Below, in pieces: positions 10,561-62,172 of a DNA stretch of 64,000 nt. The stretch's first letter is position 1. Each line of letters starts with the position of its first letter. The DNA lies in assembly GCA_016180525.1 (NCBI GenBank), contig JACPBB010000003.1, forward strand, positions 38,395 through 102,394, given 5' to 3'. The notes below the pieces were generated by a model. That model saw only the letters and a list, made by a program, of their open reading frames with translations. It did not search any database and was not told where the DNA came from. This DNA is from Parcubacteria group bacterium. Lineage in GTDB: Bacteria > Patescibacteriota > Minisyncoccia > Phycocordibacterales > UBA2135. A program made the translations under genes and the position numbers.

Positions 10561-10589
10561 GGTTCCGCGGAGCAGTCCCCGCGAAACCC

Positions 10590-31396: not shown

Positions 31397-31863
31397 ATAT
31401 TAAAATCTATAACGCTTATGCCAAGACGCCCTGCCTGCTCCCGCTCCCAGCGAGCGCCAACGGAGGACTGCCAATCTGGAAGAAAATAGAGCGCTTCAAT
31501 AACTTTTGTTTCAAAAATAGGCAGATAAAATTGTTCCAAAATTCCCATCGCGTAGTCAACATTTGGCTCCTCAATACCTTTGATTTTCTGTATTGATGGC
31601 TCAAACGGTATTTGATTAAAGACGTGTCTCCCCTCTCTTTTGAGTAACGAAACAGCGCGAGCAAAGCGTTTTAAATTTTCTTCAAGTGAACCCGCTCCTC
31701 CCGTTGAGATAGGTCCCGAGACTTGTACAATCGGCCGCGGCATTCGTCCAATAACTGTGAACGCCACAGTACGCAACTCTTTGTACGACGAGGCGTTTGT
31801 AACCATTTCTACTTCTTTATGTGTCCAATATTCTGGAATCATAATGTTAGAATTTAAATCCAT
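31393..31863 (-). CDS. Hypothetical protein (possible nucleoside 2-deoxyribosyltransferase-like / DUF4406-like fold)
   Basis: 'QVSGPISTGGAG' is reminiscent of the DUF4406/deoxyribosyltransferase-like family; this is weak. Confidence 0.3.
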   Translation of the reverse strand: MDLNSNIMIPEYWTHKEVEMVTNASSYKELRTVAFTVIGRMPRPIVQVSGPISTGGAGSLEENLKRFARAVSLLKREGRHVFNQIPFEPSIQKIKGIEEPNVDYAMGILEQFYLPIFETKVIEALYFLPDWQSSVGARWEREQAGRLGISVIDFNI

Positions 31864-32465
31864 TTTTGAGCAGTTAAAAAATCTTTTACTTGAGTAAAAA
31901 TTTTCTCGTGTCCTCTGGCATTTGGATGCAATCCATCATCAAAATCATCATTATTGAGAGGCGCGATATGAAGAAAATGTACTTTTTCGTCCTCACATAC
32001 TTCTTTCATAATATTGTTATATTTCTTCAAGTTTTCATTTGTATAATAAATTGGAATCCACGGAACGGGAGTTGTTTTTGATTCATCACAGTTTTTCAAG
32101 TCTAAAAATAAAATATTATCTGTTATCTTGCGAGCCCTCCGTATAATTCCCTCTATGTTGCTTTTGAATTTTTCTGGAGAAACCATAAGAGTTTCTGGAT
32201 GTCCTTCATGATATGAGGCGTCGTTGCCTCCTGTCTGGAAAATAAGCACATCCGCCTTGCGTATTTTTGCTTCTGCCTCAAACCGCTCAAGAATTGTCTT
32301 TGACGTTCCGCCCGAAATACTTAAATTATAAATCTCCACATAATTTTCCTCACTTCGTTTTGCCACATGAAACCACAGGCGACTCACCCACCCGCCCCTC
32401 TCCATATCCCACGCCCCCCACGCGGTACTGTCTCCAAATATACAGATTGATTCTATTCTGGACAT
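31854..32465 (-). CDS. SGNH/GDSL-family hydrolase
   Basis: Block I 'ICIFGDSTAWG' (G-D-S), block III 'GGNDAS', block V 'DGLHPNARGH' (D-x-x-H). Confidence 0.75.
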   Translation of the reverse strand: MSRIESICIFGDSTAWGAWDMERGGWVSRLWFHVAKRSEENYVEIYNLSISGGTSKTILERFEAEAKIRKADVLIFQTGGNDASYHEGHPETLMVSPEKFKSNIEGIIRRARKITDNILFLDLKNCDESKTTPVPWIPIYYTNENLKKYNNIMKEVCEDEKVHFLHIAPLNNDDFDDGLHPNARGHEKIFTQVKDFLTAQKWI

Positions 32466-38262: not shown

Positions 38263-38607
38263 CTATTGCTTAAATTCAAATCCAAATATGCCGAACTTTT
38301 GTATTTTTTCAGTGTATCCTGGATATGACACGTACATTTTTTTCATTTCTTCCACAGATTCTACATGAGGCATTATTTTTTTAAATGGAATTTCTTTTAC
38401 CATCGCCTCTATGCTCGGCCAATGATATTTTTTGTTCACTATTTTTGAAAACGAATCCTCCCCGCATACAAACTTTATTCTATCCCCTATGGCAATCGAC
38501 TGATACTTAACCGTTGCCGCCCTCGTTTCTATTTCTTTAGCCCCGCTTTTAAGTTCCTCAAAGCGTGCTTTATCAACTTTTCTAAATCTAAAAATCAATA
38601 TTGTCAT
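38263..38607 (-). CDS. ASCH (PUA-like) domain protein
   Basis: 'LKSGAKEIETRAAT' fits the ASCH G-x-K-x-x-E-x-R core; about 114 aa, the typical size. Confidence 0.5.
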   Translation of the reverse strand: MTILIFRFRKVDKARFEELKSGAKEIETRAATVKYQSIAIGDRIKFVCGEDSFSKIVNKKYHWPSIEAMVKEIPFKKIMPHVESVEEMKKMYVSYPGYTEKIQKFGIFGFEFKQ

Positions 38608-40931: not shown

Positions 40932-40963
40932 ATCGTCTACGAGAGTTCCGTTATCCCCTTAAC

Positions 40964-40999
40964 AACATTCCAATCCGCCAGCTGGCGGATTGGAATGTT
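40964..40999. repeat. Perfect 18-bp palindrome, member 1 of the 'AACATTCCAA' palindromic element family
   Basis: aacattccaatccgccag|ctggcggattggaatgtt; it shares its outer arms and flanks (cctta... / ...gttgtatg) with 44760..44789. Confidence 0.6.
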
Positions 41000-41030
41000 G
41001 TATGGTTAAAAAATCGCTTTTCCGTCGTAA

Positions 41031-41735
41031 TCAATTTTTTGCAAACTCCGCGCCGAAACTGTGAATCTTTACAGACTTTTTCCATTTAAAATTCTTGTCT
41101 ATTTTCAATCCCGTTGGTTTTTTAACGACAAAGAATTTTTTCTGAAAAAAATTGAGGCTGTGAGCCAATTGTTGAATTTCAGGCTTGGTGTGCATAAAAC
41201 CAGTGAGTTTTATTTTGCCTAAATTATACTGAACTGTTTGCCCAATTAAGTTTTTGTTTTTAATTTCATAATAATCAGAAGCCACAAAAAGAGACCCTCG
41301 GGGTTTAAGGATCCGATAAAATTCTTTAAATACTGTATGCAAATCTGAAACCTGTGGAAGAGAATAGATAGAGAGAATGATGTCAATTGAATTGGCAGGC
41401 AGTTTTGTTTTTGTAAAATCTCCCTTTTTAACTTCTAAATTAGTGAGATTGAACATTTTCTTCCTTTTTTTAGCCAGATTAAGCATAAAATCACTTATAT
41501 CCATACAAATTACCCTTTTTGCACCTCGCTGTAAGGCAAGGTGGGAAAAATATCCAGAGCCCCCTCCTGCATCAAATATAGTTTTGCCCGACAAATTTTT
41601 AGGAAGAAATTTTAAAAGCTTATCTAAAACTTCACTGTCAATCTTTCCTTCATCTCTAATTTTCTCATGCGCTCTGCCAATCCTGTTATAAAGTTTTCTG
41701 GCGAGTTTTGTAGCTTCTGCTTGAGTAATTTTCAT
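41031..41735 (-). CDS. Class I SAM-dependent methyltransferase
   Basis: Motif I 'IFDAGGGSGYFS', motif II 'RVICMDIS', and post-I acidic residues. Confidence 0.7.
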   Translation of the reverse strand: MKITQAEATKLARKLYNRIGRAHEKIRDEGKIDSEVLDKLLKFLPKNLSGKTIFDAGGGSGYFSHLALQRGAKRVICMDISDFMLNLAKKRKKMFNLTNLEVKKGDFTKTKLPANSIDIILSIYSLPQVSDLHTVFKEFYRILKPRGSLFVASDYYEIKNKNLIGQTVQYNLGKIKLTGFMHTKPEIQQLAHSLNFFQKKFFVVKKPTGLKIDKNFKWKKSVKIHSFGAEFAKN

Positions 41736-41775: not shown

Positions 41776-42738
41776 CTAATACGCTGTCGTAAGAGTGCGG
41801 TGGTATGGCTTATCGTTGGGATTTTTTGTTTGTCCCATGAGCCATAGGTGGTCGTTGATGCCGATTGAAGGAGTCTGCTTGCCGTTTTTACCGAGCTCCG
41901 TTTTCATTTTCTCTACTGCCCAAATGGTGTTTGCCCTAATCTCAACCTCCTCCGAACTGCCATGTGGAATTTGGACAAACGTATCTATTTTTTTCTCAAG
42001 TTCTGTCGCATACGTCAGTATCCCCAGCTTTCTTAAAGATTGTGGCAGTTTATAATCCGCGCACGCGGTAAACTCTTCCAAATGACTTAAATCGCCGAAC
42101 CCCTCAGCGCCAAAAGTTTGGTATATATCTTCAACTAAAAGCTGCGCTCGTTTATAAAAATACACTTTTTTACCTTCATATAAAGAGACGTCTTCAAACG
42201 AGGGGAAATTAGTAATAATAAGGCCAAGTAGTTTTGTAGCATTTCCCTTTGCCGCCTGAACAAATTTTACGAAATTGCCATCGTATTTTTCTAAAAGGAT
42301 GGATGCGACTTCTTTTGTTATTTTCCATCTTTCCTCAAGAAGCGGTATCTCAGCATTCCCCCGAAGTATTTTTTGATACTCTTCTTTACTGATTGCGGAA
42401 CGATACTCTATATCTAAAATAGGCACCCCCTCCTCAATCGCTCGCATTATCGCGGCAATCATACCCCAAGACCCGTCATATCGTTCCCCCTTCCACTCAA
42501 GCGTCCATTTTGGATCGCCCCAATAGCAAAAACTTGTTGAATTAAAAACAAGGAGCAGATTCAGCTTATCAATATCTTTAAGGTGTGAGAATGCGATTGG
42601 TGACCCGCTCAACCAATGCGGAAGATTTCCATGCTGAAATGTCTTACAAAACGTAGCGATGTTCTCATTATTTATTTTGACGCTTTTTGAACTATCAACT
42701 ACAAAACGAGTTGTTTCCAAGATTTTATTCATAACCAC
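41776..42738 (-). CDS. Queuosine salvage family protein (DUF2419/Q_salvage; Q-nucleoside/nucleotide hydrolase-like)
   Basis: Size and blocks 'FCYWGDPKW', 'YFYKRAQLLVEDIY', 'ACADYKLPQSLRKLGIL' resemble the DUF2419 (QNG1/C9orf64) family; recalled from memory, not searched. Confidence 0.5.
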   Translation of the reverse strand: MVMNKILETTRFVVDSSKSVKINNENIATFCKTFQHGNLPHWLSGSPIAFSHLKDIDKLNLLLVFNSTSFCYWGDPKWTLEWKGERYDGSWGMIAAIMRAIEEGVPILDIEYRSAISKEEYQKILRGNAEIPLLEERWKITKEVASILLEKYDGNFVKFVQAAKGNATKLLGLIITNFPSFEDVSLYEGKKVYFYKRAQLLVEDIYQTFGAEGFGDLSHLEEFTACADYKLPQSLRKLGILTYATELEKKIDTFVQIPHGSSEEVEIRANTIWAVEKMKTELGKNGKQTPSIGINDHLWLMGQTKNPNDKPYHRTLTTAY

Positions 42739-42760: not shown

Positions 42761-43219
42761 TTATTGGGTATGCAGAAATTGTTTACTAAACTCCGCGCGG
42801 ATTGCGTCGCGAATGGCAAACAGTTTTTCTTCAGGAAGTTTCAGGTCGGGTTTTATTGGATAATTTTTCCCCCACTGCTCATCTACAAATGTAATGCCAA
42901 GATATGTCCGAGGAGATTTATATCGCGGAATAAAATGCATGTGCCCGTGTCCTTTGTGTTCACGAAACATGTTTCCGAGCCACGCGTAATTCATGTGGTC
43001 AGGTTGCCAGAGATTTCCAAGAACTTTTTCATACTCTTCGGCAATTCTTTTGAGCTCGTTTAATTCTTGAGGAGTTAATTGAGAAAACCTCTGCATTTCG
43101 CCAGGTCGAGAAAGCCACGCGTACGCGCGCCCCAAATAATACTGGTCGTCATGAAGAAAGAGCGTGAAGTGCTCATACTTCTTCAACACAAACGGCTCAT
43201 ACTGCGGCAAATAGGTCAT
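42761..43219 (-). CDS. HIT-family (histidine triad) hydrolase
   Basis: 'HKGHGHMHFIP' is the H-phi-H-phi-H-phi-phi histidine triad. Confidence 0.6.
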   Translation of the reverse strand: MTYLPQYEPFVLKKYEHFTLFLHDDQYYLGRAYAWLSRPGEMQRFSQLTPQELNELKRIAEEYEKVLGNLWQPDHMNYAWLGNMFREHKGHGHMHFIPRYKSPRTYLGITFVDEQWGKNYPIKPDLKLPEEKLFAIRDAIRAEFSKQFLHTQ

Positions 43220-43372
43220 GATTTAGTTTTTATCTTTGCGCTTCATTAGAGTTGGGGTTGAATCAGTGGTTCCAATAAAATAATAAATTGGTGTCAGGTA
43301 CTTTTTATTTTTTCTTAATTCAAAAATACTGTTTTTTAATGTTTATTTTATCCATTCACTAAATAAACTATC

Positions 43373-43696
43373 TCAAATACCAATTTCAATTTTCCACTCC
43401 ATTGGAATCAGGGTTAAGTTTATAGGATATTTAAAATCTGTAGATTGTTTCCAATCCGTAAGCTTTAATTTGAGTTCTTTGATAAGTTTGTCAGCATCTT
43501 TAATTTTCTGCGCGGACATTCTTACAAATATTTCCACAGGAGCAATTTTAACTTTTATATGAGCTGAATTGGTATATGTAAAAACATCTTCTATCCCCGT
43601 AACCTCGGAAACAATATCCCGAACAGCTTTTGATAGAGCTTGTATATCCCCTTCGGAGATCTGCTCATTGTCATATTCAATATTAATCATTGGCAT
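43373..43696 (-). CDS. Hypothetical small protein (possible tautomerase-like, N-terminal Met-Pro)
   Basis: Begins MPMINIEY...; Pro1 after Met removal is the hallmark of tautomerase superfamily members, but this is weak. Very low GC. Confidence 0.3.
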   Translation of the reverse strand: MPMINIEYDNEQISEGDIQALSKAVRDIVSEVTGIEDVFTYTNSAHIKVKIAPVEIFVRMSAQKIKDADKLIKELKLKLTDWKQSTDFKYPINLTLIPMEWKIEIGI

Positions 43697-43720
43697 AATA
43701 TGTGTATTAAAATTCTTATA

Positions 43721-43752
43721 AATTAATTCTCAAATACTGCTTCTATATTATT
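43721..43752. repeat. 32-nt direct repeat, copy 1 (5'-leader/promoter element of 43373..43696)
   Basis: ttaattctcaaatactgcttctatattatttc; 31/32 identical to 44719..44750. Confidence 0.6.
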
Positions 43753-44692
43753 TCTTTGATTTAAAAAGTTGTTTATTAAATTCTTCACGACCCATTGTGT
43801 TTAAAAATTTTATTTTTTCTTTTTCACTTTCAAAATCTCCTTCTTCTCCCCAGCTAATTCCCAGAAGAATAATGAGTTTTAATGCATCAAAAATATGCAG
43901 CCGTTCTTCTGTGTCAAGCACACGATATTTTATATACTCCTCTATGATAAAAGCGGCTTCATATTCCTTAAACCCCCTCTTTGGAGGGAATGCCCACCAA
44001 TATATAAGTCCTGCGACATCATAGATAAGGTAAAAATAAAAACTCATATCAAAATCAAGAACGGCAACAATATCTTTACCTTTAAACAAAAAGTTGCTGT
44101 AATTTAAATCGGCGTGACAAATACCTTTCGGCATACTATTCGGCAACTGTATATCTTCCAATTCATTTTTAAGCCATTGTTCGCGCTTCGGTAAACTTTC
44201 TGTTCGATTCTGTTTGCAATATATTCTCAAACAATAATCAGCATCAAATGGCTCTCTGTCTTTAAAAAATTCAAGTTCATTATTTTTAGTGATGTTGTGC
44301 AGTTGTGCTATTAGTTTTATAACTTCAGCAATTTCTGTTTTGTTAAACGCGTCATTTGGATTTTGGCCGTGCGTGCCTTCAATAAATGCCGTAATCATGT
44401 ACGGCTTTTCTTTATATATTCCAAAAAAATCTCCAGTGCGATTTTTGATTATAGAAAGAACCGGGTAGTTGCTATCTTGCAAAAAATTAATCAGTTGCAC
44501 TTCAAATGCAACGTGTTTTTTTGTTCTGTTTTCGTAGTATCGTAAAACAAATTTTCCTTCGGTGGTTTTTAGAAGAACAGTTGTCTGTCCTGCCCCGCTC
44601 CCAAATGTTTCATAGCCGCAATATTCTCCCACGTCATAGTTTGACAGAATTTCAAGAAAATCATTTTCATTTATGGTAGTTTGTACAGGCAT
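43748..44692 (-). CDS. Aminoglycoside/choline-kinase-type phosphotransferase (APH family)
   Basis: Catalytic loop 'ICHADLNYSNFLF' (H-x-D-x-x-x-x-N) and 'VLDFDMSF' (D-F-D); 314 aa; very low GC. Confidence 0.65.
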   Translation of the reverse strand: MPVQTTINENDFLEILSNYDVGEYCGYETFGSGAGQTTVLLKTTEGKFVLRYYENRTKKHVAFEVQLINFLQDSNYPVLSIIKNRTGDFFGIYKEKPYMITAFIEGTHGQNPNDAFNKTEIAEVIKLIAQLHNITKNNELEFFKDREPFDADYCLRIYCKQNRTESLPKREQWLKNELEDIQLPNSMPKGICHADLNYSNFLFKGKDIVAVLDFDMSFYFYLIYDVAGLIYWWAFPPKRGFKEYEAAFIIEEYIKYRVLDTEERLHIFDALKLIILLGISWGEEGDFESEKEKIKFLNTMGREEFNKQLFKSKK

Positions 44693-44718
44693 AGAAATCG
44701 CTGTCAGATACTTTTTTA

Positions 44719-44750
44719 TTAATTCCCAAATACTGCTTCTATATTATTTC
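44719..44750. repeat. 32-nt direct repeat, copy 2 (5'-leader/promoter element of the APH-like gene)
   Basis: ttaattcccaaatactgcttctatattatttc. Confidence 0.6.
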
Positions 44751-44759
44751 CCTTACTGA

Positions 44760-44789
44760 CATTCCAACATTCTCAAGAATGTTGGAATG
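44760..44789. repeat. Palindromic element, member 2 of the 'AACATTCCAA' family
   Basis: cattccaacattct-ca-agaatgttggaatg (14-bp perfect stem). Confidence 0.6.
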
Positions 44790-44792
44790 TTG

Positions 44793-45128
44793 TTATGTTA
44801 TTTTTCCTCTTTGGAAAAAATTTATGAGGGTTTTATTGGCAAATTTTTTAACATCCTCCGGGGGAGGTTCATAATAAGAAACTTCTACTCTTCCATTTCT
44901 AAAATAAACATAGCCTTGCAATAATATATCACTGAGCTCAATGCCCATTGCGTGGCGTACAAGCGCATGTCCTTCGTGAGAAAGATATAACTTAAAATTT
45001 TTTGTTCCTACAAGCGTAATATCATTTCCGTTTGAAAATCTTTCTTGAACGATTTTCCTGGAAGACCCGACCCCGAATTTAATTTCAAATTCCGGAACAT
45101 ATTCTTTGCTTTCAAAATTTTTTTCCAT
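44793..45128 (-). CDS. Hypothetical protein
   Basis: 111 aa, no motif, low GC. Confidence 0.3.
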   Translation of the reverse strand: MEKNFESKEYVPEFEIKFGVGSSRKIVQERFSNGNDITLVGTKNFKLYLSHEGHALVRHAMGIELSDILLQGYVYFRNGRVEVSYYEPPPEDVKKFANKTLINFFQRGKIT

Positions 45129-45271
45129 TACTTTGAGAATATATTAAAAAAATTATTTATGCAAAATGTTAAATTCCTCTCAATGAAAAAAGGGGCTCAC
45201 ATGTTTTAAATAGTTGACAAATAAACTATAATATATTATAAATTAATTTAGAGGTTCAAAACTACTTCAAG

Positions 45272-48629: not shown

Positions 48630-48953
48630 CTAATTAAGACAAACACCGTCAGAACAAACAAGGAACACAAAAAAGAAGAAGGTAAACAAAATTGGTATGA
48701 GCGGGAACATCACAAAGTGTTTAGCGCGAGCGTAATTTTGCTTATGGTAAAACCAGATTGATGAAATTACCGAAATAAAAACAATAATAGGATATGACCA
48801 TATAATAATTACCACTATAAAAACGAGTACATCCCATATCGGACCAGCAGAACTGTCTCCCAGAAATCCTGCAAGAAGAGCAACAATAAACCATGGAGCT
48901 AGCGATGCAACCCAGATTAAATTTAGAATGATCAAGATTATTTTTGGATTCAT
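48630..48953 (-). CDS. Small membrane protein, hypothetical
   Basis: 107 aa, 3 TM helices. Confidence 0.3.
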   Translation of the reverse strand: MNPKIILIILNLIWVASLAPWFIVALLAGFLGDSSAGPIWDVLVFIVVIIIWSYPIIVFISVISSIWFYHKQNYARAKHFVMFPLIPILFTFFFFVFLVCSDGVCLN

Positions 48954-49957: not shown

Positions 49958-49980
49958 GAAAAATTATTATTTGTTAAAAA

Positions 49981-50010
49981 CATTCCAACATTCTATAGAA
50001 TATTGGAATG
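49981..50010. repeat. Palindromic element, member 3 of the 'AACATTCCAA' family; flanked by A5/T6 runs (bidirectional terminator-like)
   Basis: aaaaa-cattccaacattcta-t-agaatattggaatg-tttttt (one mismatch in the stem). Confidence 0.55.
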
Positions 50011-50055
50011 TTTTTTGCCAATTTGTTAAAGTTAACAATTTAGATTTTTTATACA

Positions 50056-51896: not shown

Positions 51897-52022
51897 TACG
51901 CACTCCTTTATTTAGACAAATCTGTTTTCTATATTCATTAATACAAAAAAGAACCCACAAAGTCAATAAAAAACGGGTCTTCCAGAGGAAGACCCGTACT
52001 AAAAAGAACTATAAAGAACTAT

Positions 52023-53696
52023 TTATTCGCGTGCCCAGATGGAACCCAATGCTTTTTGAAGTTCCTCCGGCCACTTTTGCGGTTCCAAGGCGTTTACCCA
52101 GACCACCGTAGAACGGTGAATATCGGTAATCGCGATTTCAGGAACGGTTCCTGAAACGACCCCTGTTGCGGTACTGCCGCCTTTTTGTTTTTGTGTCACG
52201 ACCGTCGTCATCCAGAAGAACCGTTCTTTTGAGACGCCGTTTACATCCGGAAGCACCCGAATGTAGGGACGATGTTCAACGGGCGTGTTTTGCGTCCAAT
52301 CGTAATTTTTCTTTGAATTGCGCACATAGTCGGCAACTGCGCTCACTCCAATCGCGGACTCACCGTGTTTGAAGTGCCGGTACGCATATTGCGGACCAAC
52401 GCCGTCTGCCGAGACAAAGAAGCTTGTTGAAAGCCCCTGCTTGCCCGTGTCATACGGCTCAAGCGCAAAGTACTGATAGAGTTTCCCCGCCTCCCCTTTC
52501 TTCATGTTGAAGTAGAGAGTAAAGGGCTGTTGATTCATGTCGTCGGGCAAGTCAGCGATCCGCAGATCCCCGACACGATTACCCGGCAAGGGTCCCAGAA
52601 AACCTTCCTGGAACCGCAAGCTTTTTGCCATGAACCGTGACACCGCATACGGCATCACATTCTGCCCTTTCAGAAACTCATGTTTGCCAATCTCTTCAGG
52701 TGGAATCCATTCCCCGCATCCTTTAAGAATGTATGGAATGAAATCAAGCGCCGCTTCCCACGAGTAGTCGTGGTCACTTTGCCTGATTACCTGAACGCCG
52801 CCAAATTCCGGCCAAGGAAAGAAGATGCCTTCCCACTTTATGAGTGTGACAACTTGAACCCACTTGCCGGCATCATCTTTCATGAAGAGGATGTTGCCCG
52901 GCTCGTAGTTTAAGAATCGCCACAGGCCAAATGAACGGCGTGTGCATGTGGTGGCATTTCGTGAAAACGGAAGCTGCTCACCTGCGGTAAACGAGACACC
53001 GTCCCGATGCTTTTTTGAAAGCTCCGGAGAAGCAGATGTCGCAGGCAAATGCACCACTTCCTGAACCTTTCCTAAAAACCGCTGCACAAAGTATGTCGGT
53101 GCAATCGCTGAGGTCCATTCATACCGATCTCCCGTACGCACCATGTTCGGCGGCGTTGCCACCTCCGTTTCATTGATGCGTTCGTTTACGAGCGTGTGGA
53201 CACTGTTTAACGGCAGTATCCGCTCGTAATCAGTAATCGGCAATGTCTGAAGATCAACAATCTTTAAAGTTTCATACCTCCAGTATGAAGTAATGTAATG
53301 ATTTACCTCCTTACCCAAGACGACGATGGCAACGCCTGCGCCACATGCAAGGAGTGACACGAATGCCCTCCAGCGCGCCGAGCGTTTTCTCACAATCATC
53401 CAGGCAAGAGACATGACAATGAGCACCGTAAGCAAGCTTCCGAGATATATTCTTCCGGTAAGCGCAAACGGCTGAACAAAATTGCGTTCTACATACATGC
53501 CACCGACAACAAATGCCGACAGAATGAATGTGAGAATAGGACGATTTAGAAAAGCCCTACCCAGTGCACGAATCGGACCAAATATCATATTCCAGGGAGA
53601 CCATGACGCTTCACGCCATGCCCCCTTTTCCGCTGCGGATATTGTTTCTTTTGCGTCCACCTGCTCACCTTGCGGTTCAAGCGGAGTGTCGTTCAT
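52023..53696 (-). CDS. Operon gene 6/6: membrane protein (3 N-terminal TM) with large about 400-aa C-terminal domain, unknown function
   Basis: ATG overlaps the upstream stop as TAATG; GC about 50%. Confidence 0.4.
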   Translation of the reverse strand: MNDTPLEPQGEQVDAKETISAAEKGAWREASWSPWNMIFGPIRALGRAFLNRPILTFILSAFVVGGMYVERNFVQPFALTGRIYLGSLLTVLIVMSLAWMIVRKRSARWRAFVSLLACGAGVAIVVLGKEVNHYITSYWRYETLKIVDLQTLPITDYERILPLNSVHTLVNERINETEVATPPNMVRTGDRYEWTSAIAPTYFVQRFLGKVQEVVHLPATSASPELSKKHRDGVSFTAGEQLPFSRNATTCTRRSFGLWRFLNYEPGNILFMKDDAGKWVQVVTLIKWEGIFFPWPEFGGVQVIRQSDHDYSWEAALDFIPYILKGCGEWIPPEEIGKHEFLKGQNVMPYAVSRFMAKSLRFQEGFLGPLPGNRVGDLRIADLPDDMNQQPFTLYFNMKKGEAGKLYQYFALEPYDTGKQGLSTSFFVSADGVGPQYAYRHFKHGESAIGVSAVADYVRNSKKNYDWTQNTPVEHRPYIRVLPDVNGVSKERFFWMTTVVTQKQKGGSTATGVVSGTVPEIAITDIHRSTVVWVNALEPQKWPEELQKALGSIWARE

Positions 53697-54376
53697 TACA
53701 GTCTCCCTCTTTTTGTGAAGTTGGCAATGATTTCCTGCGCACTCGACTCTATCTTTATCTCTGCAGGAGCCAAGGTTGCCTTCAGCGTCTCTGCCGGAAT
53801 TTCTGGTTTAGACACCACTACAGGAGTTTCCTCTCGGTGTACGCTGAAGACATATTTTTTCCAGAACGAAAGGAGCCGCGATGGAGCTGAAGTGAGAAGC
53901 CCTTTTGAGACAGCCACAAGCTCTTCGCCTTTCTCTTCCGCTTCTTTCTTTACCGCGTTTAAGTCAATGTGTTCTGCCCTTTCAGTCGCCGTATCAATTA
54001 CCTCAAACACCTCTTCTCTTCGCTGAAACAGGCGATAGAAGGGATTTCCAAGGGCAAGTCCGATAAGCATCGCCGGCACCTCAACAAGCCAGAGGATAAT
54101 TTCTGCCAATAGATTTATATCATGTCCCCAGATCATGTAGATGCTCTGGGCAGTTGAAATCAGAAACGCAATTGTCGCTTTTCGGTGAGTCTTTTGGTTG
54201 TACATGAACCCCCGCACGACCTCTGGCGGTATGGGCTCCTTGTGACAAATATCATAGAGCCACCGGTATACATGAATGCCATACGTTCTGTCAAGGAAAT
54301 ACCACGCAACTCCCAAAATCATGTAAAGCACGATGCATGTGAGCGCGTAATTCCATACGTTGAGAACTGCCTGCAT
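53696..54376 (-). CDS. Operon gene 5/6: membrane protein (4 TM) with cytoplasmic C-terminal region, unknown function
   Basis: Start chosen at MQAVLNV (AGGAGGG RBS 8 nt upstream) rather than the longer ORF to 54448. Confidence 0.4.
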   Translation of the reverse strand: MQAVLNVWNYALTCIVLYMILGVAWYFLDRTYGIHVYRWLYDICHKEPIPPEVVRGFMYNQKTHRKATIAFLISTAQSIYMIWGHDINLLAEIILWLVEVPAMLIGLALGNPFYRLFQRREEVFEVIDTATERAEHIDLNAVKKEAEEKGEELVAVSKGLLTSAPSRLLSFWKKYVFSVHREETPVVVSKPEIPAETLKATLAPAEIKIESSAQEIIANFTKRGRL

Positions 54377-54393
54377 GGTCGGTCCCTCCTTTC

Positions 54394-55650
54394 CTAGGGT
54401 TGGAGCATGAGCGGAGTGTAGTTTGCCGCAAGATATCCGGCAACCCACTCACGCTTTGCTTTTCCGAATTTTTTATAACAATTCAGGAAAAAGTTTTTAT
54501 CGTGGGTGTAAAGCTCAAGAATATTTCTCGGCTCACATCTGGTCAGCAATATCCACAGTACATCCTGCGTTGCTGGATGCAGATGTGATGCCGGCTCAGC
54601 AAGAAAGAACGAGAGTTCATCCGAGAGCTCCGGCAGAGTTTTCTTTGCAAGAGCCATCGCGATAAATCTTTCCAGCTCAAAGTACATTTCAGGAATATTT
54701 TTCTTATGTTTTCCGACAAGCTGCTTTCGTTGCGTTGACGTAAGATTATCCCAGTCAATATTTTTTTCAAGATCAAGTAGAGAATGCGCCAGCAAAACCT
54801 CTTTTTTCCGAATGAGCAAATCCGGCGTTTCCTTATATCGATCGGGTATAGAGATCCACCCCGCGTCCCAGAGGAAACGGAGCAGTCCATAGTCCTTCTC
54901 GTAGAGGAAAAACAGAATCGTGCCATCCGGTACCGAAGTCTCGCTATAGAGAGCTTCATCTTCAAGAATAAGTACATCATTTCCATCTGCTCCGCGGAGC
55001 ACTGCTGCCCCGCCGAAAGCAGTCGTGTAGAAATCCTGAAAGGCGCCAAAGTCTGACATCCGCTCGATAACCACTCGACGCCTTCTCAAATCGCCATGAA
55101 TCCGTGCGTGTTCGCGGATTTTTTCCTGAACTTCCGAATTCAGACAATTTGTTCCTTCAAAAAAAGCATCAATGAGCTTTTGTTGTTCAATCGCCGCTTT
55201 AGAAAGCTCGCCCGCGTCTATTTTGGGCACGATTGAATTCAGAAGGAGAAGATCAGCCGGACTTTCAAAACTTGCAAGCTGGTTGTCAAAATCAATGACA
55301 AGTCCGTGTGTTGCGGTAATATCCGCGATCTCGCGAAAATTACCGTCAAATACGGAACGCAACATCCGGCGCATCCATGAGTATGTCGGAAAATATACCG
55401 GCTTTTTGAATTGCGCTTGAGATACGATAATCGCCATCGGATTGGCCACATCGTGGCAGAGATAAAAGGTGTTTCCTTTTTCCTCCGCCACTTCAGGGCT
55501 CCATCCCGCTCCATCAATATTAATCCGCTTCAGTCTTGTCGGCTCAATGCCCGCAATGCGCAAACATTCGTTATAGCGGTCCACAAGCTCCCTGCTGTCA
55601 AGCGGAACAAGTCCCGCATAGAGGAGCTTGTTGCCTATCAACTGTTTCAT
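54394..55650 (-). CDS. Operon gene 4/6: 418-aa soluble protein, unknown function
   Basis: Start overlaps the AAA gene's stop (ATGA); no motif. Confidence 0.4.
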   Translation of the reverse strand: MKQLIGNKLLYAGLVPLDSRELVDRYNECLRIAGIEPTRLKRINIDGAGWSPEVAEEKGNTFYLCHDVANPMAIIVSQAQFKKPVYFPTYSWMRRMLRSVFDGNFREIADITATHGLVIDFDNQLASFESPADLLLLNSIVPKIDAGELSKAAIEQQKLIDAFFEGTNCLNSEVQEKIREHARIHGDLRRRRVVIERMSDFGAFQDFYTTAFGGAAVLRGADGNDVLILEDEALYSETSVPDGTILFFLYEKDYGLLRFLWDAGWISIPDRYKETPDLLIRKKEVLLAHSLLDLEKNIDWDNLTSTQRKQLVGKHKKNIPEMYFELERFIAMALAKKTLPELSDELSFFLAEPASHLHPATQDVLWILLTRCEPRNILELYTHDKNFFLNCYKKFGKAKREWVAGYLAANYTPLMLQP

Positions 55651-57659
55651 TCCCTTCCTCCTACGTGTTTTGAGGCTGGTCTCTTATGCACTTCGCCATA
55701 GCGAGACGTAGCATCATCTCTTACTTTCATTTGTTTTACGGTATCTTCCACTTCGCGATTATACGACGCGTCAAGGATTGAAACCATGGTATTGAGATAT
55801 TTGAATGTCTCTTCATAGAGCAACTCATGGAACTTAAGTCCTCCCATGTGTTCTAACATCAATTTCACAATCATATCTTTCTTTGTATCATACGGATGAA
55901 CAACGAAGCTTTCACGCTTCGTGAGCCATTCTTCCGGAAAATCAAAATCCAGAAGCCGCGAACCGACAGCAACCTGAATGTTGCGTACGTCCCGCGAGGA
56001 GAAAAACGGATATTCCTGCTGCAGCTTTACAAAAAGCGCGGCATAGAAATCATGTTCATGCGGATTGTGCTCACTCTTAACCTCATCAATAATGCGAGCC
56101 AATTTACGGTCTCGCACGGTTTCGAGCGCTTCAACCGTCCGTTCAACCGTATTTTTGAATTTCTGGCCGGAAAGATATTCGTAATCACCCGGCCATTCTA
56201 AGTTAACAATGTTACTCTTATATTTATCATACCCACCTGTCCACAGTCTCATTTGGTCAAGAAAGTCCGCGCGTGTCCGGGCTCCGTCAACATCCATGCG
56301 ACCCAAAACACGCGAGAGCACGGCTTTATCCACCTGCTCCGGAATGTTCGTGGCGAACATGATGATGACATTGCCTCGATTAATCGCGGAAGCTCCCTCG
56401 GTTCTCCGAAGAAAGACCCCGATTATTTCACGCACACCCGATGAAACGCCTTGCATGCTCCTATCCTGAAAACTGTTTTCCGCGTCATCAACCGGCGCGA
56501 GCAATAGCTCATGCGAGTTAGAGAGTGGCGCCATCCAGTTTTCCATATTTTCGGCCGAACCGCCCTGAAACGTCGAAACAATAGCGTTCGGGAACGGATG
56601 CGGACGAAATGGAATATTAAGCGCATCACAGTAATCTTTTACCATCGTGAGAATCGCCGCGATGAGAAGAGTTTTACCGGTACCCGGAATGCCTTTCATG
56701 AGGTAAATCCACGGGAAACCGCCAAGCTCAACCATGGGGTTCATTTTCTTTTCAAAATCATAGGCAATGAGCGCTTGCGCAAGCCGATACGCGTATAGTT
56801 TCGCGATGCGGTTGCCCACAATCGTGTTGATATCAACACGTTTAAATTCAACGGCAACATGAGCACCAAAGGCGTCTCCATGGAAGCCATTTACAGAAAA
56901 CGTCGTTTTCTCAAGACGATAGTTGCGCTCTGTATACTGTTCCGTGTGCTTTAGAGATTGCGATTTACCTTTGATTTCCTCAAGTACTGCCGCAAAGTAA
57001 AGCTCGGTCATCTTTCGAAAATCAACACCTGTGAGCACTCCTCCACTTTTTAGGTACGAACCTAAGTGGAAGAGCGTGCATTGCATTGCCGAGAGCTGGC
57101 CCGAAAGTGAAATCATCTCGGGCAACCCGCGGAATGAAAGTGCTGATTCGGATATATCCGCTTCCTGAGAACTCTGTTGAAGTTTCCATACGATGAAGTA
57201 TGAGAGCACGAACGCCGTGATGGCCGCGTGCGTCTCCGACTTATCGCGGAATTCAACTTGCTCCATTTGCGTAGTCAGCTGATTCTTACTGTTTCTTTCA
57301 CGAAGTGTCTCGAGCCCGGATACTTTCGCATACAAGCTCGCAACATGAAGTGCGATGCACAATCCTGTGCGCATTACGTTAAGCGTCTGATTTACGTGCT
57401 CATTCATGAGTTCATCGCCGCCGCCAATGGGGCGTGCGACATCAAGGATTGAAATAGTTTCGTTTCGTGAACTATCCCGTGAAGCTGGTTTCCATCCTAT
57501 TGGCTTCTGTGGTGATTTTACCTCAAGCTCACTCTGAAGTTCAGCGACACTGCGACGCGGGTCCCATTGAACCGACTTCAGCAGATTTGTCGCTTGCTTT
57601 AAGTAATGCGCGAGTTGTTCTCGCGTGACGGGAATTTCAGAAGCGGTGTTAGCCGACAT
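55647..57659 (-). CDS. Operon gene 3/6: AAA+ ATPase (classic AAA clade) with about 330-aa N-terminal domain of unknown function
   Basis: Walker A 'GIPGTGKTLLIAA'; sensor-1 region 'VIIMFATNIPEQVDKAVLSRVLGRMDV' (the ATN-x-P-x-x-hD-x-A-h-x-R-x-GR pattern of classic AAA). Start set at MSANTASE, with AGGAGGG 7 nt upstream. Confidence 0.6.
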   Translation of the reverse strand: MSANTASEIPVTREQLAHYLKQATNLLKSVQWDPRRSVAELQSELEVKSPQKPIGWKPASRDSSRNETISILDVARPIGGGDELMNEHVNQTLNVMRTGLCIALHVASLYAKVSGLETLRERNSKNQLTTQMEQVEFRDKSETHAAITAFVLSYFIVWKLQQSSQEADISESALSFRGLPEMISLSGQLSAMQCTLFHLGSYLKSGGVLTGVDFRKMTELYFAAVLEEIKGKSQSLKHTEQYTERNYRLEKTTFSVNGFHGDAFGAHVAVEFKRVDINTIVGNRIAKLYAYRLAQALIAYDFEKKMNPMVELGGFPWIYLMKGIPGTGKTLLIAAILTMVKDYCDALNIPFRPHPFPNAIVSTFQGGSAENMENWMAPLSNSHELLLAPVDDAENSFQDRSMQGVSSGVREIIGVFLRRTEGASAINRGNVIIMFATNIPEQVDKAVLSRVLGRMDVDGARTRADFLDQMRLWTGGYDKYKSNIVNLEWPGDYEYLSGQKFKNTVERTVEALETVRDRKLARIIDEVKSEHNPHEHDFYAALFVKLQQEYPFFSSRDVRNIQVAVGSRLLDFDFPEEWLTKRESFVVHPYDTKKDMIVKLMLEHMGGLKFHELLYEETFKYLNTMVSILDASYNREVEDTVKQMKVRDDATSRYGEVHKRPASKHVGGRE

Positions 57660-58827
57660 GTTCGACCCTCCTTTCTTCCTGGTCGTATGCCAAAAACTGC
57701 ACATCTCCGGAGAATTCCGGAAATAGCGCGCGATCTTCGGCGGTTAAGTGTTGGCGAAACCGGTGCGGCATGAGCGCGAAACGAGTCATAGATGTTGACC
57801 CGCGTCTCACAAGCTCGCGATCCGTCTTTGGCACGTGGAAAATTTGTCGTGCCTTCTTTTTTCCAAGCGAGAACAACGAGTCAGGCATTTTTTCCTTTGT
57901 TGACTGCACAATTTCAGTCTCAAACAGTAGCACAAAATCTTCTGGCAAGAGATGCGTGTCGTCAAAACAATTCTGCATCCTTACCAGAAAGCTTTTCTGA
58001 TTTGTTTCAACACTGGAAAAAAGCGGCGAATAAACGGGGCCGATTCTGTTTCGCTTTATGACTATCGGATAGATATTCGGCAAAATTTCGTCAAGTCGAA
58101 TACCGACAGCGCGAAGCTCCTCTGGAGCTCGCTCACCGATGTGCTCAACGGCCTCCAGGAGACCAATGAGTTCAGGGCCCCCCTCTTCAAGTGGTAGAGT
58201 TCCGTTTTCCATCTCATGCTCAAAAAGCATAAGATAGACATACGGCAAGTTGGTTGCCGAATCATAGCATGCCCAAGAAAAATAGTACGCTTTCCGATTT
58301 TTATTCCGAATTGGAACATCTTCTGGAGCGCGATATACTTTTCCCGGAGTGAATTTGAAGAACATGGTTCGTAGATCAAGCATTTCAAGATATGTCCGGT
58401 CTGCACACTGCCACAGTAAATCAGCGAGTTTCTGATTATTTAATTTCTGTTTCTCCGGAGATGCTTCCTGTATCATCAATATATTGAGTATTTTTTCCTT
58501 CAATTTTTGAGAAGGTAGGAATTTTGGCAACCGTTCATCCCGCGTAGACAAGTCAGCGAACAGCTGACTGATATCCATCCACATCGGAAACCCCGAATCC
58601 GCGATCTCGAGCTCGTCCGTAGATTTCCAGCTGGGGCTATGCACATGTTTGAGTTGCAGCGCCTCTACTGTTTTTTGCAATTTACCCATATAAATCGCCA
58701 TTGATTCAAATTCAGAACTTTTGACGTTGCCATAATATATTCCGAGCATAGAAAATGCGCGGGCGAGCAAGCGTGTATACGCACTATAATCAATGCGTTG
58801 CGCAGTAGTTTTCTCTCGAGCCGTCAT
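57649..58827 (-). CDS. Operon gene 2/6: 392-aa soluble protein, unknown function
   Basis: Overlaps the AAA gene start by 11 nt; no motif. Confidence 0.4.
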   Translation of the reverse strand: MTAREKTTAQRIDYSAYTRLLARAFSMLGIYYGNVKSSEFESMAIYMGKLQKTVEALQLKHVHSPSWKSTDELEIADSGFPMWMDISQLFADLSTRDERLPKFLPSQKLKEKILNILMIQEASPEKQKLNNQKLADLLWQCADRTYLEMLDLRTMFFKFTPGKVYRAPEDVPIRNKNRKAYYFSWACYDSATNLPYVYLMLFEHEMENGTLPLEEGGPELIGLLEAVEHIGERAPEELRAVGIRLDEILPNIYPIVIKRNRIGPVYSPLFSSVETNQKSFLVRMQNCFDDTHLLPEDFVLLFETEIVQSTKEKMPDSLFSLGKKKARQIFHVPKTDRELVRRGSTSMTRFALMPHRFRQHLTAEDRALFPEFSGDVQFLAYDQEERRVEHVG

Positions 58828-58906
58828 TTGTCTCCTCCGTGTTTGGGGTTAGTAGAAAAACAGGGGCCCGAGAGCCCCTGTGAAGACGCGTTGAGAGCAA
58901 TATGCA

Positions 58907-60232
58907 TCACGCCGCGTCCACGGTCTTACGATGGCTTGCGACCGAATCGTAGCTGGTATCACGACCATATCCATTGCTGAACTGTTCAAGTATGTCATCG
59001 AGCCTTTTTTCAAAATTTGCTCGCGCCTCAGCACGGGCCTCAGAAATTTCTTCAAGCGTTTTAAGATCTTTTGGAGCGCGCTCTATCCGATCAAGGATTG
59101 CTTTTTGGCCTCCCGTAATCATCTTGGCCATAGCTTCCATGCCCTTCATATCTACGGTAGTCGCGACGTCATCGATCATCTTCATCGCTTCTTGGTCAGC
59201 CGTCGCCTGCATGGCGCCAATCTGGCTGTCAAAAATAGTTTCGCGCTCCTTCACACCCATCTGCAAGGTTGCAACCCATGCATGATGGTGCTCCAGGAAC
59301 TGACGCTGTCCAGCAACGTGAGTTTTGTAAATCTCAATGAATCGCTCTTGCTCCTGCAAAACCATAAAATTCTTGTTTTGCTCTTCCCGCGCCTTATCGC
59401 GCTCCTTGGTTACTTCGGAGATTTCAGTTTCAAGACGAGCGGCCTCTTCGGTTCCCTGCTGAACTTCATTTCGCTGAGCGACGAGAGTCGCGAGCTGTGC
59501 TTCGTGATTTGTAAGATTTTTTGTAAGAACTTCAATGTTTGCTACCAGCTCTTCGCGCTTTGCCAGCCCTTCCACAAGAGCAGCATCCACCGACTGGAGA
59601 TCCTCTTCAATGAAGCTAACGCGCCCGACGGCATTGTCAATCGCAATCTGCGTGCATGCCTGAATCCTCTGCATCGAGGTGCTAAGGTCTGCATTGATGA
59701 GCCGCTCGCGCTGCTTCGCCGAAGCAATCTCTTGTGCGGCTTTCATGCCGGCTTCCGCGCTCTCGATATCCTTCTTCGCTTTGGCAATCGCCTTGTCGCG
59801 TCTTCCGAAGAAAATGTTGAACATCTTCTTTTCCGCCTTAGCAAGATCTGATTTTGCGCGGCCAAACATCGCCTCCGCGTCATCAACAATCTTCTGCTCG
59901 TCCGGATTTAACTTTTCAAGGGCGTCAATCGACACGCCAATTTCCTTATACTGCTCTCCAAGCGCAATCATTACTCGAGCGATATCTTTTGTCGTCGCAT
60001 CAACGGCAGTCCGCGCAGACTTAAGGTCCGCAGCAAGAATACCAGCGCGATCCACGTCTCCAGTGCTGAGTGCTTCCTGAATATCTTTGGCAATGGTTTC
60101 AAAATGTTCAACAGCCTGAGCGGCCTTTTCGGACCGCTCTTGCATCTCTTTTGCCTGATGATCAGCCATATCGGCAATCATTCGAGGGTCTTTCGCGCGA
60201 ACCTGTGCGGTTCGAGTACCTTTCTGTACCAT
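58907..60232 (-). CDS. Operon gene 1/6: about 440-aa all-alpha coiled-coil protein (Ala/Lys/Glu-rich), unknown function
   Basis: Start set at ATG (MVQKGTRTAQ, RBS AAAGGAAGG 5 nt upstream). The supplied ORF extends to a TTG at 60283. The heptad-rich sequence suggests PspA/ESCRT-III-like or TelA-like helical scaffolds, which is inference. Confidence 0.45.
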   Translation of the reverse strand: MVQKGTRTAQVRAKDPRMIADMADHQAKEMQERSEKAAQAVEHFETIAKDIQEALSTGDVDRAGILAADLKSARTAVDATTKDIARVMIALGEQYKEIGVSIDALEKLNPDEQKIVDDAEAMFGRAKSDLAKAEKKMFNIFFGRRDKAIAKAKKDIESAEAGMKAAQEIASAKQRERLINADLSTSMQRIQACTQIAIDNAVGRVSFIEEDLQSVDAALVEGLAKREELVANIEVLTKNLTNHEAQLATLVAQRNEVQQGTEEAARLETEISEVTKERDKAREEQNKNFMVLQEQERFIEIYKTHVAGQRQFLEHHHAWVATLQMGVKERETIFDSQIGAMQATADQEAMKMIDDVATTVDMKGMEAMAKMITGGQKAILDRIERAPKDLKTLEEISEARAEARANFEKRLDDILEQFSNGYGRDTSYDSVASHRKTVDAA

Positions 60233-60270
60233 GGCGTCCTTCCTTTGTTTGCCTTGGGGTTGGTGGGTAT

Positions 60271-60289
60271 GTCCTTTTGTCAAAGGACA
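60271..60289 (-). promoter_or_regulatory. Palindromic site containing a TTGACA hexamer upstream of the six-gene operon (operator/-35 candidate)
   Basis: gtccttt-tgtca-aaggac; the minus strand reads ...cctttGACAaaaggac. No convincing -10 was seen. Confidence 0.25.
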
Positions 60290-60406
60290 AGAGTACAGTA
60301 AATAGGGCTTAAAAACCCTATTTAAAGCTCCGTAACTCTAATAACCTTCTACACTATTTTAACAAAAAAGTCAAGTGTTTTGGGCATGCGCAATACATAT
60401 CAATAT

Positions 60407-61131: not shown

Positions 61132-62172
61132 TTATTTTCCTTTCGTGTCTAACAATTCAATAAGCGCAAGTTCAAGCGGCAATTGTTTTATATATGCCCG
61201 ATTCGTATCAGAATACGCGTCAAGAAGTTTTCCAAGCATTTCAGAATTAATTGCTAACCCCTCTTTTCCAGCCAGTGTTTCAAAAAATAGAATGTCATCC
61301 TCCGAAAAGTCTTCTTTAATTTTCTTTTTTGTTTCCAGATCAAAGCGGGTTAAAAGTACAAGCCGCATTTTTTCAAGTATCAGTTTAAGAAAGAGCATAA
61401 AATCAACATTTGTTTCAGTTGCCTTTCTCACTGCGCCAAGCGCATCCTCTAAATTTTTATGAGCAAGCGACTTTACAAACTCGTTGACCAAAACTGCCGG
61501 CGGAGCATTTGTAATTTTTTCAACAAATTCACGCCCTATTGTTTTTCCTTTTACCGCGGAAAGTACGAGATGAAGAATCCCTTGCGTGTCACGGAACGAA
61601 CCGTCCCCCAAAACTGCGACAAGGTCAGCGGCAGATGGTTCAAGCGAGTATCCTTCTTTGCGCGCGATTTCTGTCGCTGATTTTTTAAGAAGTGCGTGCG
61701 TCGGTTTTTTAAATGTAAATGTCTGACAGCGCGAGATAACAGTTTCTGGAACTTTTCCGACTTCCGTTGTCGCAAGCACGAACACCGCGTGCTTCGGCGG
61801 TTCTTCAAGTGTTTTTAAAAGCGCGTTAAACGCTTCTTTAGTAAGCATATGCACTTCATCTATGATGTACACTTTGTACGGGGATTTAAATGGCAGAGTT
61901 TTTACTCCTTCACGCAACTCCCGCACGTCATCAATGCCGCGGTTTGAAGCGGCATCTATTTCATATAAATCTTCCGGCTCACAACCAATTTCGCGCGCTA
62001 AAATACGGGCAACAGATGTTTTTCCCGTCCCGCGAGAACCAAAAAAAAGATATGAGTGCGTAATGTCCCCTGACTTAACCGATTCTTTAAGCACTTCTAT
62101 TATATGATCTTGTCCCAAGACTTCCGCGAAGCTCTGGGGACGATATTTTCTATAAAGCGCGATGAAAGACAT
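61132..62172 (-). CDS. dnaX: DNA polymerase III subunit gamma/tau (short form, clamp-loader AAA+ module only)
   Basis: 'YRKYRPQSFAEVLGQDHI', Walker A 'GSRGTGKTSVARILA', Walker B 'YIIDEVHML', SRC 'VISRCQTF'. Confidence 0.8.
   Translation of the reverse strand: MSFIALYRKYRPQSFAEVLGQDHIIEVLKESVKSGDITHSYLFFGSRGTGKTSVARILAREIGCEPEDLYEIDAASNRGIDDVRELREGVKTLPFKSPYKVYIIDEVHMLTKEAFNALLKTLEEPPKHAVFVLATTEVGKVPETVISRCQTFTFKKPTHALLKKSATEIARKEGYSLEPSAADLVAVLGDGSFRDTQGILHLVLSAVKGKTIGREFVEKITNAPPAVLVNEFVKSLAHKNLEDALGAVRKATETNVDFMLFLKLILEKMRLVLLTRFDLETKKKIKEDFSEDDILFFETLAGKEGLAINSEMLGKLLDAYSDTNRAYIKQLPLELALIELLDTKGK

Follow-up and report, generated by a model that had tools for sequence, protein, structure and literature searches.

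A direct repeat upstream of two genes in a Parcubacteria genome as a probable duplicated tail of a decayed VOC/glyoxalase gene

The DNA analyzed here (the window) is a 64-kb stretch of a metagenome-assembled genome (MAG) of the Parcubacteria group (Candidate Phyla Radiation, CPR; Patescibacteria). In an AT-rich part of the window, a 32-nt direct repeat precedes two consecutive genes, one encoding a kinase with the APH fold and the other a 107-aa protein that begins with Met-Pro. The original prediction took this repeat for a common leader or promoter, and named a cassette-like duplication, a shared operator and a recombination footprint of acquisition as possible meanings. Our analysis argues with moderate confidence that the repeats are the duplicated tail of a decayed VOC/glyoxalase gene, left behind as the scar of a rearrangement, and not a designed leader. 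The repeat matches in frame the tail of a VOC gene in a relative, it differs from that tail almost only at synonymous positions, and it lies at the syntenic place; the reading as a duplicated pseudogene tail follows from these three observations.

Every gene of the region is carried on the minus strand. The features on which the argument depends are as follows.

44793-45128, minus strand: 111-aa ORF (from the ORF list), the first in the co-directional array; GC content at third codon positions (GC3), 26.8%.
44759-44790, no strand: perfect palindrome ACATTCCAACATTCT-TG-AGAATGTTGGAATGT, 32 nt, with 15-bp arms and a 2-nt loop.
44719-44751, minus strand: repeat copy R2, GGA AAT AAT ATA GAA GCA GTA TTT GGG AAT TAA (GNNIEAVFGN*); putative relic of the last 10 codons and the stop codon of a VOC gene.
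44693-44718, minus strand: segment C, approximately 25 nt, AAAAAAGTATCTGACAGCGATTTCT, between R2 and the kinase ATG.
43748-44692, minus strand: 314-aa APH-fold kinase resembling homoserine kinase type II (Pfam PF01636, E = 1.9e-25, 90.5 bits against a cut-off of 23.2).
43723-43755, minus strand: repeat copy R1, AGA AAT AAT ATA GAA GCA GTA TTT GAG AAT TAA, overlapping the kinase stop codon in another frame.
43373-43696, minus strand: 107-aa Met-Pro protein, a native, syntenic gene whose family occurs in CPR bacteria and DPANN archaea.
approximately 43285-43344, minus strand: R3, an older, diverged repeat copy with segment C, between the 107-aa gene and a HIT-like gene.

In the direction of transcription, the order is thus the 111-aa ORF, the palindrome, R2, the kinase gene, R1, the 107-aa gene, R3, the HIT-like gene, Q_salvage and a methyltransferase gene. 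The three ORFs named in the prediction (the 107-aa Met-Pro protein, the 314-aa APH-family kinase and the 111-aa hypothetical protein) and the palindrome were all recovered.

The two young copies of the repeat (43723-43754 and 44719-44750) were identical at 31 of 32 positions, as predicted, although the first copy had been placed 2 nt away from its actual coordinates. With one mismatch allowed, the window contained exactly these two occurrences, and none of 100 shuffles gave any match. The similarity extends to 43 nt at 88% identity (43712-43754 and 44708-44750; z = 11.5 for the local alignment of R1 with R2) and stops abruptly outside. From the end of each young copy it is exactly 26 nt to an ATGCC start (at 43696 and 44692), and the distance of 996 nt from one repeat to the other is also that between the two start codons. 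Misassembly can be dismissed, because an independent Logan assembly from another data set (SRR12113431; short) spans both copies with identical sequence. The third copy, R3, was missed in the first reading; its core is TTAATTCAAAAATACTG at 43315-43331, and R3 and the R2 region could be aligned over 61 columns with a single 6-nt gap (z = 7.3, segment C included). Segment C is common to R2 and R3 (z = 5.4). A fourth copy tested upstream of the 111-aa ORF was not significant (z of approximately 1).

Over the genes for RuvB, Q_salvage, a methyltransferase, TypA and tRNAs, the DNA of the closest relative compared, GCA_964653905.1 (L008), is approximately 78-82% identical to that of the window, and there are several rearrangements between the two. 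The L008 orthologue of the 107-aa protein shares 85% identity with it and has the same neighbors, Q_salvage and the methyltransferase gene. Upstream of this orthologue lie, in order, an 81-aa gene, a hairpin (hp1) identical to the palindrome at 44759-44790, a 62-aa ORF, a second hairpin (hp2) that is a variant of the palindrome, and the promoter TGATATAAT-9 nt-ATG. The 62-aa ORF encodes a VOC/glyoxalase protein without its middle, that is, with an internal deletion (Pfam PF00903, E = 1.3e-7); it matched PDB entry 4z04_A (E = 4.8e-17) over residues 9-37 and 82-126, the latter through ...FVFDPDGNNVEAV (DPDGNNVEAV). The 3' end of this ORF reads GAC GGA AAT AAT GTG GAG GCG GTG TTC GGG AAT TAA, encoding DGNNVEAVFGN* (...DPDGNNVEAVFGN*), and the ORF stops 99 nt upstream of the 107-aa orthologue. 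The window repeats, which precede the 107-aa gene by 26 nt and 1022 nt, occupy the same genomic position.

R2 was identical to the 3' end of the L008 VOC ORF at 27 of 33 positions, which is the genome-wide level of identity. Five of the six differences were synonymous third-position changes from G or C to A or T, and the remaining one was a first-position change between Val and Ile; by our own calculation, and on a small sample, the chance that at least five of six differences fall on third positions is approximately 0.018. When the L008 VOC ORF was compared with the whole window by tblastn, R2 (10 of 11 residues identical) and R1 (NNIEAVFEN*) were the two best matches. R1 was identical to the VOC 3' end at 26 of 33 positions (z = 4.7, p <= 0.003). 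Segment C was collinear with the L008 sequence that runs past the VOC stop into the left arm of hp2 (AATTAATAmAAAA...TCTGACA; z = 3.6, p = 0.006); a candidate homology of segment C with the sequence after the 107-aa stop in L008 was rejected (z = 0.0). From the pattern of codon changes, we conclude that selection on the protein probably acted on the parent VOC gene during most of the period since the divergence of the two genomes, and that the gene was cut down to its last ten codons only recently. R3 differs from the VOC tail by non-synonymous changes (KTVFLN*, as read from the sequence) and an indel, and is for these reasons taken to be an older relic.

The alignment with L008 was unbroken from the 107-aa gene through R1 (L008 7888-8260 to window 43757-43377, 80%). 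The window palindrome and the start of R2 aligned with hp2 and the sequence upstream of the 107-aa gene of L008 (54 nt, z = 16.5) and also with hp1 and its flank (46 nt). By these alignments, a stretch of 996 nt, beginning at segment C and closing with R1, is extra relative to L008. What is extra is the kinase coding sequence, which has 9-25 nt of flanking DNA on its 5' side and none on its 3' side; neither the kinase nor the 111-aa ORF was found at the syntenic site of L008.

From the three copies of the repeat, their homology to the end of a VOC gene, the synteny with L008 and the lack of the kinase there, we infer an order of events and a mechanism. A VOC gene would formerly have stood upstream of the conserved 107-aa gene and would since have decayed. 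R2 and segment C are probably its tail in situ with the native 3' flank, in which part of the left arm of a palindrome survives; they look so because segment C is collinear with the L008 sequence between the VOC stop and hp2. A deletion reaching as far as the palindrome at 44759-44790 would have removed the body of the VOC gene, and the kinase appears to occupy the place of the rest of hp2. R1 would be a recent copy of R2, because only one base separates the two and because R1, like R2, shows a synonymous-only pattern when compared with the L008 VOC tail. The rearrangement that brought in the kinase may have produced it, for instance through single-crossover or homology-assisted integration; alternatively, an older copy, like the degenerate one that L008 still shows, may have been turned into R1 by gene conversion. 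The outcome would be a near-bare kinase coding sequence between two copies of the tail, with its stop codon borrowed from R1.

Several points weigh against this reconstruction. The protein-level match covers no more than 10-11 residues (E = 0.049 for the L008 ORF itself), and the first 9 nt of the repeat, GGAAATAAT, also resemble the right flank of the palindromes, so that only approximately 24 nt are unambiguously derived from the VOC gene. The equal distance of 26 nt from each repeat to ATGCC has no explanation in a scar except coincidence, and the near-identity of R1 and R2 could also be due to selection. L008 is the single informative relative, and a deletion of the kinase there by recombination between repeats would look identical to an insertion here; a search for closer relatives with the 107-aa protein in the genome contig collection returned only loci of at most 67% identity. 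The search for repeat copies covered the 64-kb window, 138 loci and public collections, not the remaining 69 kb or more of the contig or the other contigs. The observation behind the original prediction was largely correct, whereas its reading as a shared leader was not supported. Among its three options, the recombination footprint of acquisition came closest and is supported by the duplicated VOC tail and by the absence of the kinase from L008.

The alternative nearest to the prediction is that the repeat is a functional shared cis-element, whether promoter, operator or 5' leader, that co-regulates the kinase and 107-aa genes and whose identity has been kept by selection. The common distance to ATGCC, the 31/32 identity and the abruptly diverging flanks would agree with this, and so would the presence of a third copy before the next gene. 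R1 supplies a -35-like TTGAGA 16 nt from a TTTAAT -10 box, and a -10-like hexamer, TAATAT, occurs in the 5' half of both copies. In the window, the ATG of many first genes follows an extended -10 box, TGnTAYAAT, at a distance of only 6-9 nt (as before 12576-13337, 18197-19747, 31854-32465, 38263-38607, 41776-42738, 48630-48953 and 61132-62172), which implies leaderless mRNAs, and genes inside operons have GGAGG-type ribosome-binding sites. The TGnTAYAAT box was found in neither copy of the repeat. The hexamer at the -10 position before the kinase is CTGACA, without a ribosome-binding site, and the promoter scan gave neither a -10 box nor a Shine-Dalgarno sequence in segment C. In the region as a whole, the consensus scan returned 10 sites against 11.2 expected in shuffles, none of them in R2.

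The leader RNAs folded no better than shuffles (z = +0.74 and -0.97), and Rfam gave no match to them at the gathering threshold and only chance-level matches at E <= 1; on these results, a structured leader or riboswitch was rejected. Upstream of the L008 107-aa gene, the second (B) half of the repeat is broken by gaps, only the first 15 nt or so being alike, whereas the -10 box and its spacing are kept. The repeat also has a clear ancestry in coding sequence. The 32-mer recurred nowhere that was searched: blastn-short of the 138 fetched loci and the window returned only R1, R2, R3 and the Logan duplicate, and exact-match scans gave 0 matches for a repeat 22-mer in the genome contig collection, for a codon-degenerate VOC-tail pattern in metagenome contigs and for a repeat 21-mer in viral contigs. 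A shared cis-element is accordingly unlikely in our view. An archaeal TATA/BRE reading of the repeat was dropped, the window being bacterial (MacB, HlyD, TypA). The following promoter-like sites were noted for the genes of the region.

45138-45165, minus strand: promoter-like site of the 111-aa ORF, TTTGCA-16-TATATT, 9 nt before the ATG; a consensus match only.
43697-43733, minus strand: promoter-like site of the 107-aa gene, TTGAGA (43733-43728, in R1)-16-TTTAAT (43711-43706)-9-ATG; predicted from sequence.

The site of the 111-aa ORF fits the leaderless layout typical of this genome, and the -10 box of the 107-aa gene, with its 9-nt spacing, is orthologous to TGATATAAT-9-ATG of L008. The kinase would probably be transcribed by read-through from the promoter of the 111-aa ORF, across a palindrome without a U-tract; its translation would probably start from a leader that is rich in A and U, has no structure and contains no Shine-Dalgarno sequence. 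The 107-aa gene would keep its own leaderless-type promoter, to which R1 may supply the -35-like TTGAGA by chance.

If the repeats were att-like or cassette-like sites, the kinase, 107-aa and HIT-like genes would have been captured singly through recombination, site-specific or of the Campbell type, that used the VOC 3' end or the neighboring palindrome, and each capture would have left a copy of the site before the gene. Three same-strand copies do precede three consecutive genes, and the target is the 3' end of a gene, the classical location of attB, with direct repeats derived from it at both borders. The insert is almost exactly one coding sequence, the kinase changes its context in other genomes, and palindromes lie at the boundaries in the window as well as in L008, whose VOC remnant stands between hp1 and hp2. 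Capture of this kind is however distinctly unlikely, given that no integrase, transposase or IntI was present among the window ORFs tested (64 kb) and that the repeat is neither palindromic nor attC-like. As a native gene in synteny with L008, the 107-aa gene was not captured, the kinase homologues elsewhere have no related flanks, and no other copy of the repeat occurred in the 138 loci. Integration at an att site would also have to account for an insert that holds the kinase coding sequence only, with no recombinase, and for a VOC gene that was not reconstituted.

A further reading gives the leading part to the palindromes. These conserved elements, possibly with an ArsR-type partner, would be hot spots of breakage and recombination at which CPR genomes capture and shuffle promoterless single genes; the kinase would have been captured into hp2, split in the process, and R2, R1 and R3 would be the junctions of a cassette-like array that operates without a classical integrase. 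We regard this as very unlikely for the present locus. The direct repeats that bracket an insert of approximately 1 kb would agree with a target-site duplication made by a transposable element carrying the kinase. Such an origin is effectively excluded by the length of the repeats, 32-43 nt, far above that of known target-site duplications (2-14 bp), and by an insert that is a bare coding sequence without terminal inverted repeats or a transposase gene. Chance similarity in AT-rich DNA or an artefact of assembly deserves still less credence. Short matches of AT-rich sequence do abound in this AT-rich region (there are many weak repeat families), but the shuffles (0 of 100), the alignment score (z = 11.5) and the independent assembly across both copies leave this explanation a negligible probability.

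The palindrome beside R2 belongs to a family of its own. Two further copies occur in the window.

49980-50011, no strand: second copy of the palindrome, 23 nt upstream of the start of the Obg GTPase gene, flanked by an A-run and a T-run.
40962-41001, no strand: variant palindrome that shares the outer arms ACAACATTCCAA...TTGGAATGTTGT.

The 30-nt core, CATTCCAACATTCT-NN-AGAATGTTGGAATG, is thus present three times in the window (one of them the variant) and four times in L008 (5738-5769, 6091-6122, 7594-7625 and 7849-7882), where three copies are identical to that at 44759-44790. As RNA, the latter folds with -31 kcal/mol (z = -4.5), and no U-tract follows it on the coding strand. The core had at least 120 exact matches in metagenome contigs of varied GC content (loci L019-L138). 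Among the matches listed, the loop was always self-complementary, and the flanks varied in sequence and GC content yet lengthened the stem by 3.2 bp on average, with the consensus AnAA-core-TTnT, the third position of which covaries.

An 88-aa ArsR-type helix-turn-helix (HTH) gene (Pfam HTH_5) lay near the hairpin in 29 of the 120 loci listed and directly adjacent to it in 27; the encoded proteins were mostly 57-70% identical to the L008 copy. The hairpin is typically located 15-40 nt upstream of the ArsR-type start or overlaps its stop, and it was present on both sides of the gene in at least five loci. Copies occurred alike in tandem, convergent and divergent intergenic regions, as judged from crude gene calls. 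A plain intrinsic terminator was rejected, with no U-tract at 44759-44790 and with copies, on these crude ORF calls, in both divergent and convergent regions. From its sequence and distribution, the palindrome may be the operator of a regulon, a REP-like element or a rearrangement hot spot. A literature search found no paper with the palindrome sequence and no description of it in Patescibacteria.

Several palindrome copies adjoin gene fragments, and some hairpins (e.g., L132 2509-2922) stand beside apparent fragments of housekeeping genes, as read from translations with no family search. Hairpins were also found within local duplications: a 473-nt tandem repeat in L023 (7073, 7546), and in L046 (1104, 3072), together with L071 11077, a unit of approximately 2 kb with a duplicated ArsR-type gene. 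The duplicated units and the fragments hint that the palindromes mark unstable sites. The palindrome, rather than the 32-nt repeat, is the more valuable lead of the region.

The kinase itself appears to be intact, as judged from its translation, which contains the catalytic motifs HxDxxxxN (H193-A-D195-...-N200) and DFD (D213-F-D215); its length is within 2 aa of that of its closest homologue (P0002, 312 aa). As to its subfamily, on which the prediction had suggested a check, it scored far below the NCBIfam thresholds for homoserine kinase (NF003558, 121 bits against 271; TIGR00938, 103.5 bits against 255.9). Its best solved relative was the homoserine kinase of PDB entry 2ppq (E = 2.8e-18), followed by the amicoumacin kinase 6sum. 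The neighborhood of the kinase was different in each of the seven other genomes inspected, the flanks there had no relation to those in the window, and none of these contexts linked the kinase to a VOC gene. In two cases it stood beside transposase genes, adjoining a Transposase_mut fragment in one genome (L005 4464-4784) and a 301-317-aa Y1_Tnp protein in another (L006 6043-6996, L007 5905-6810). The kinase is thus probably a mobile singleton that often relocates. A phage origin was considered and set aside, no viral relatives having been found. Three homologues (P0015, P0019 and P0077; 428-474 aa) are fused to a SET domain (PF00856), and a further one (P0017, 492 aa) is also extended. The prediction had also described a second APH-family fragment at 1-590. 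This minus-strand ORF, which runs off the window, is the N-terminal part of a kinase-like protein (ITELKGGITNKNY...), but its APH match was weak (E = 0.003, 17.8 bits against the cut-off of 23.2 bits), and BLASTP against the islet kinase gave E = 0.068, so that it is not a paralogue but unrelated.

The family of the 107-aa protein comprised 142 homologues, nearly all of 107 aa, without a Pfam family. M1 and P2 were invariant in the 21 members aligned, and the archaeal MAGs in which the family occurs belong to Woesearchaeota and Nanoarchaeota. The AF2 model (pLDDT 76, moderate) has a beta-alpha-beta-beta-alpha-beta, ferredoxin-like arrangement, and the best Foldseek matches in the PDB were ferredoxin-like or DABB proteins (E of approximately 2e-3, TM of approximately 0.6). 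A tautomerase/MIF fold, for which the N-terminal proline would be fitting, was not favored by the model, as no tautomerase appeared in the Foldseek top 50. For the 111-aa ORF, a database search returned only the protein itself, with no homologue outside this organism, and no Pfam, NCBIfam or PADLOC family was assigned. A PADLOC scan for membership in defense systems gave marginal matches only. The gene downstream of R3 is listed here.

42761-43219, minus strand: HIT-like gene, 152 aa (Pfam HIT, E = 0.0082, a weak match); GC content 44%, which is normal.

The HIT-like gene had no counterpart at the syntenic place in L008.

The region had been described as a very low-GC islet of 27-30% GC. It is indeed the lowest-GC stretch of the window; its GC content is, however, 33.4% (43373-45128), or 32.0% for 43220-45271, and single 300-nt windows alone reach 28.7%. 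At this scale, 43373-45128 falls at the 0.9th percentile (z of approximately -2.5; window mean 42.1%, standard deviation 3.5%). Single genes with the same GC content and GC3 are found elsewhere in the window (12115-12528, 26145-26582 and 41031-41735), and GC3 was below 0.30 in 7 of the 65 window ORFs. The L008 genes at the syntenic place are still lower in GC (28.6% and 30.8%). In other genomes, the 107-aa gene is 5-17 GC points below its host locus, except on one archaeal contig that is already AT-rich, and the kinase family is 2-11 GC points below. The idea of a foreign low-GC islet would therefore hold only in part: L008 lacks the kinase and the 111-aa ORF at this site, whereas the 107-aa gene is native. 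Low GC content is an unsafe marker of foreign DNA in these genomes, for the most AT-rich gene of the islet is a native one.

Elsewhere in the window, a block of approximately 8-9 kb (approximately 51900-60300) has a GC content of 46-51%, against 42%, and GGAGG ribosome-binding sites; it encodes an AAA ATPase and several proteins without an assigned family. L008 has no counterpart of this block and carries instead a hairpin-flanked ArsR-type gene between the same flanking orthologues (tRNA-Gln and a 236/261-aa gene). The block may be an acquired island. An imperfect inverted repeat at 10493-10558 (31-nt arms, 74% complementary, 4-nt spacer) lies at the upstream edge of ORF 10516-10824, and ARAGORN assigned 63417-63509 to a tRNA-Ile with anticodon TAT that is unusually long (93 nt) and may contain an intron or insertion.

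Taken as a whole, the locus most likely adds one more case to the kinds of genome scar already known: the tail of a pseudogene, duplicated at a rearrangement site that a palindrome marks. It is a cautionary case in which the apparent shared leader of two genes would be coding sequence recycled from a dying gene. It may also serve as a dated snapshot of a reduced Parcubacteria genome that is losing a VOC gene and accommodating an APH-fold kinase that relocates between genomes. That kinase shares the fold and motifs of homoserine kinase type II and the APH kinases (COG2334) but scores under half of the NCBIfam cut-offs, and its family differs in its wide occurrence among CPR and DPANN genomes, in which amino-acid biosynthesis is mostly missing.

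As in the gene remnants of other reduced genomes, an intergenic relic can here be read in frame as coding sequence, and its parent is decaying in the relative L008. Ordinary relics are single, whereas the window has three same-strand copies, two of them near-identical and bracketing an intact, unrelated gene. Islands flanked by attL and attR in tRNA, tmRNA or protein genes likewise show direct repeats of tens of bases, derived from a gene 3' end, around DNA that a relative lacks; here, however, no integrase was found, the enclosed DNA is a single coding sequence of less than 1 kb, the target is not intact, and a third copy lies beyond a native gene. Integron cassette arrays are similar in that a repeat separates short, unrelated, co-directional genes and in that the kinase has no promoter of its own, but the present repeat is not an imperfect palindrome, has no R' and R'' cores, was found without IntI or attI, and would include one "cassette" that is native. 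The palindrome recalls the 12-2-12 operators of ArsR/SmtB repressors through its perfect 14-2-14 inverted repeat and its frequent ArsR-type neighbor, and it recalls REP-like elements through its many dispersed intergenic copies, although no RAYT transposase was seen with it. It is set apart from both by a sequence that is conserved to the base across metagenomes and by a stem that is extended through compensatory pairs in its flanks.

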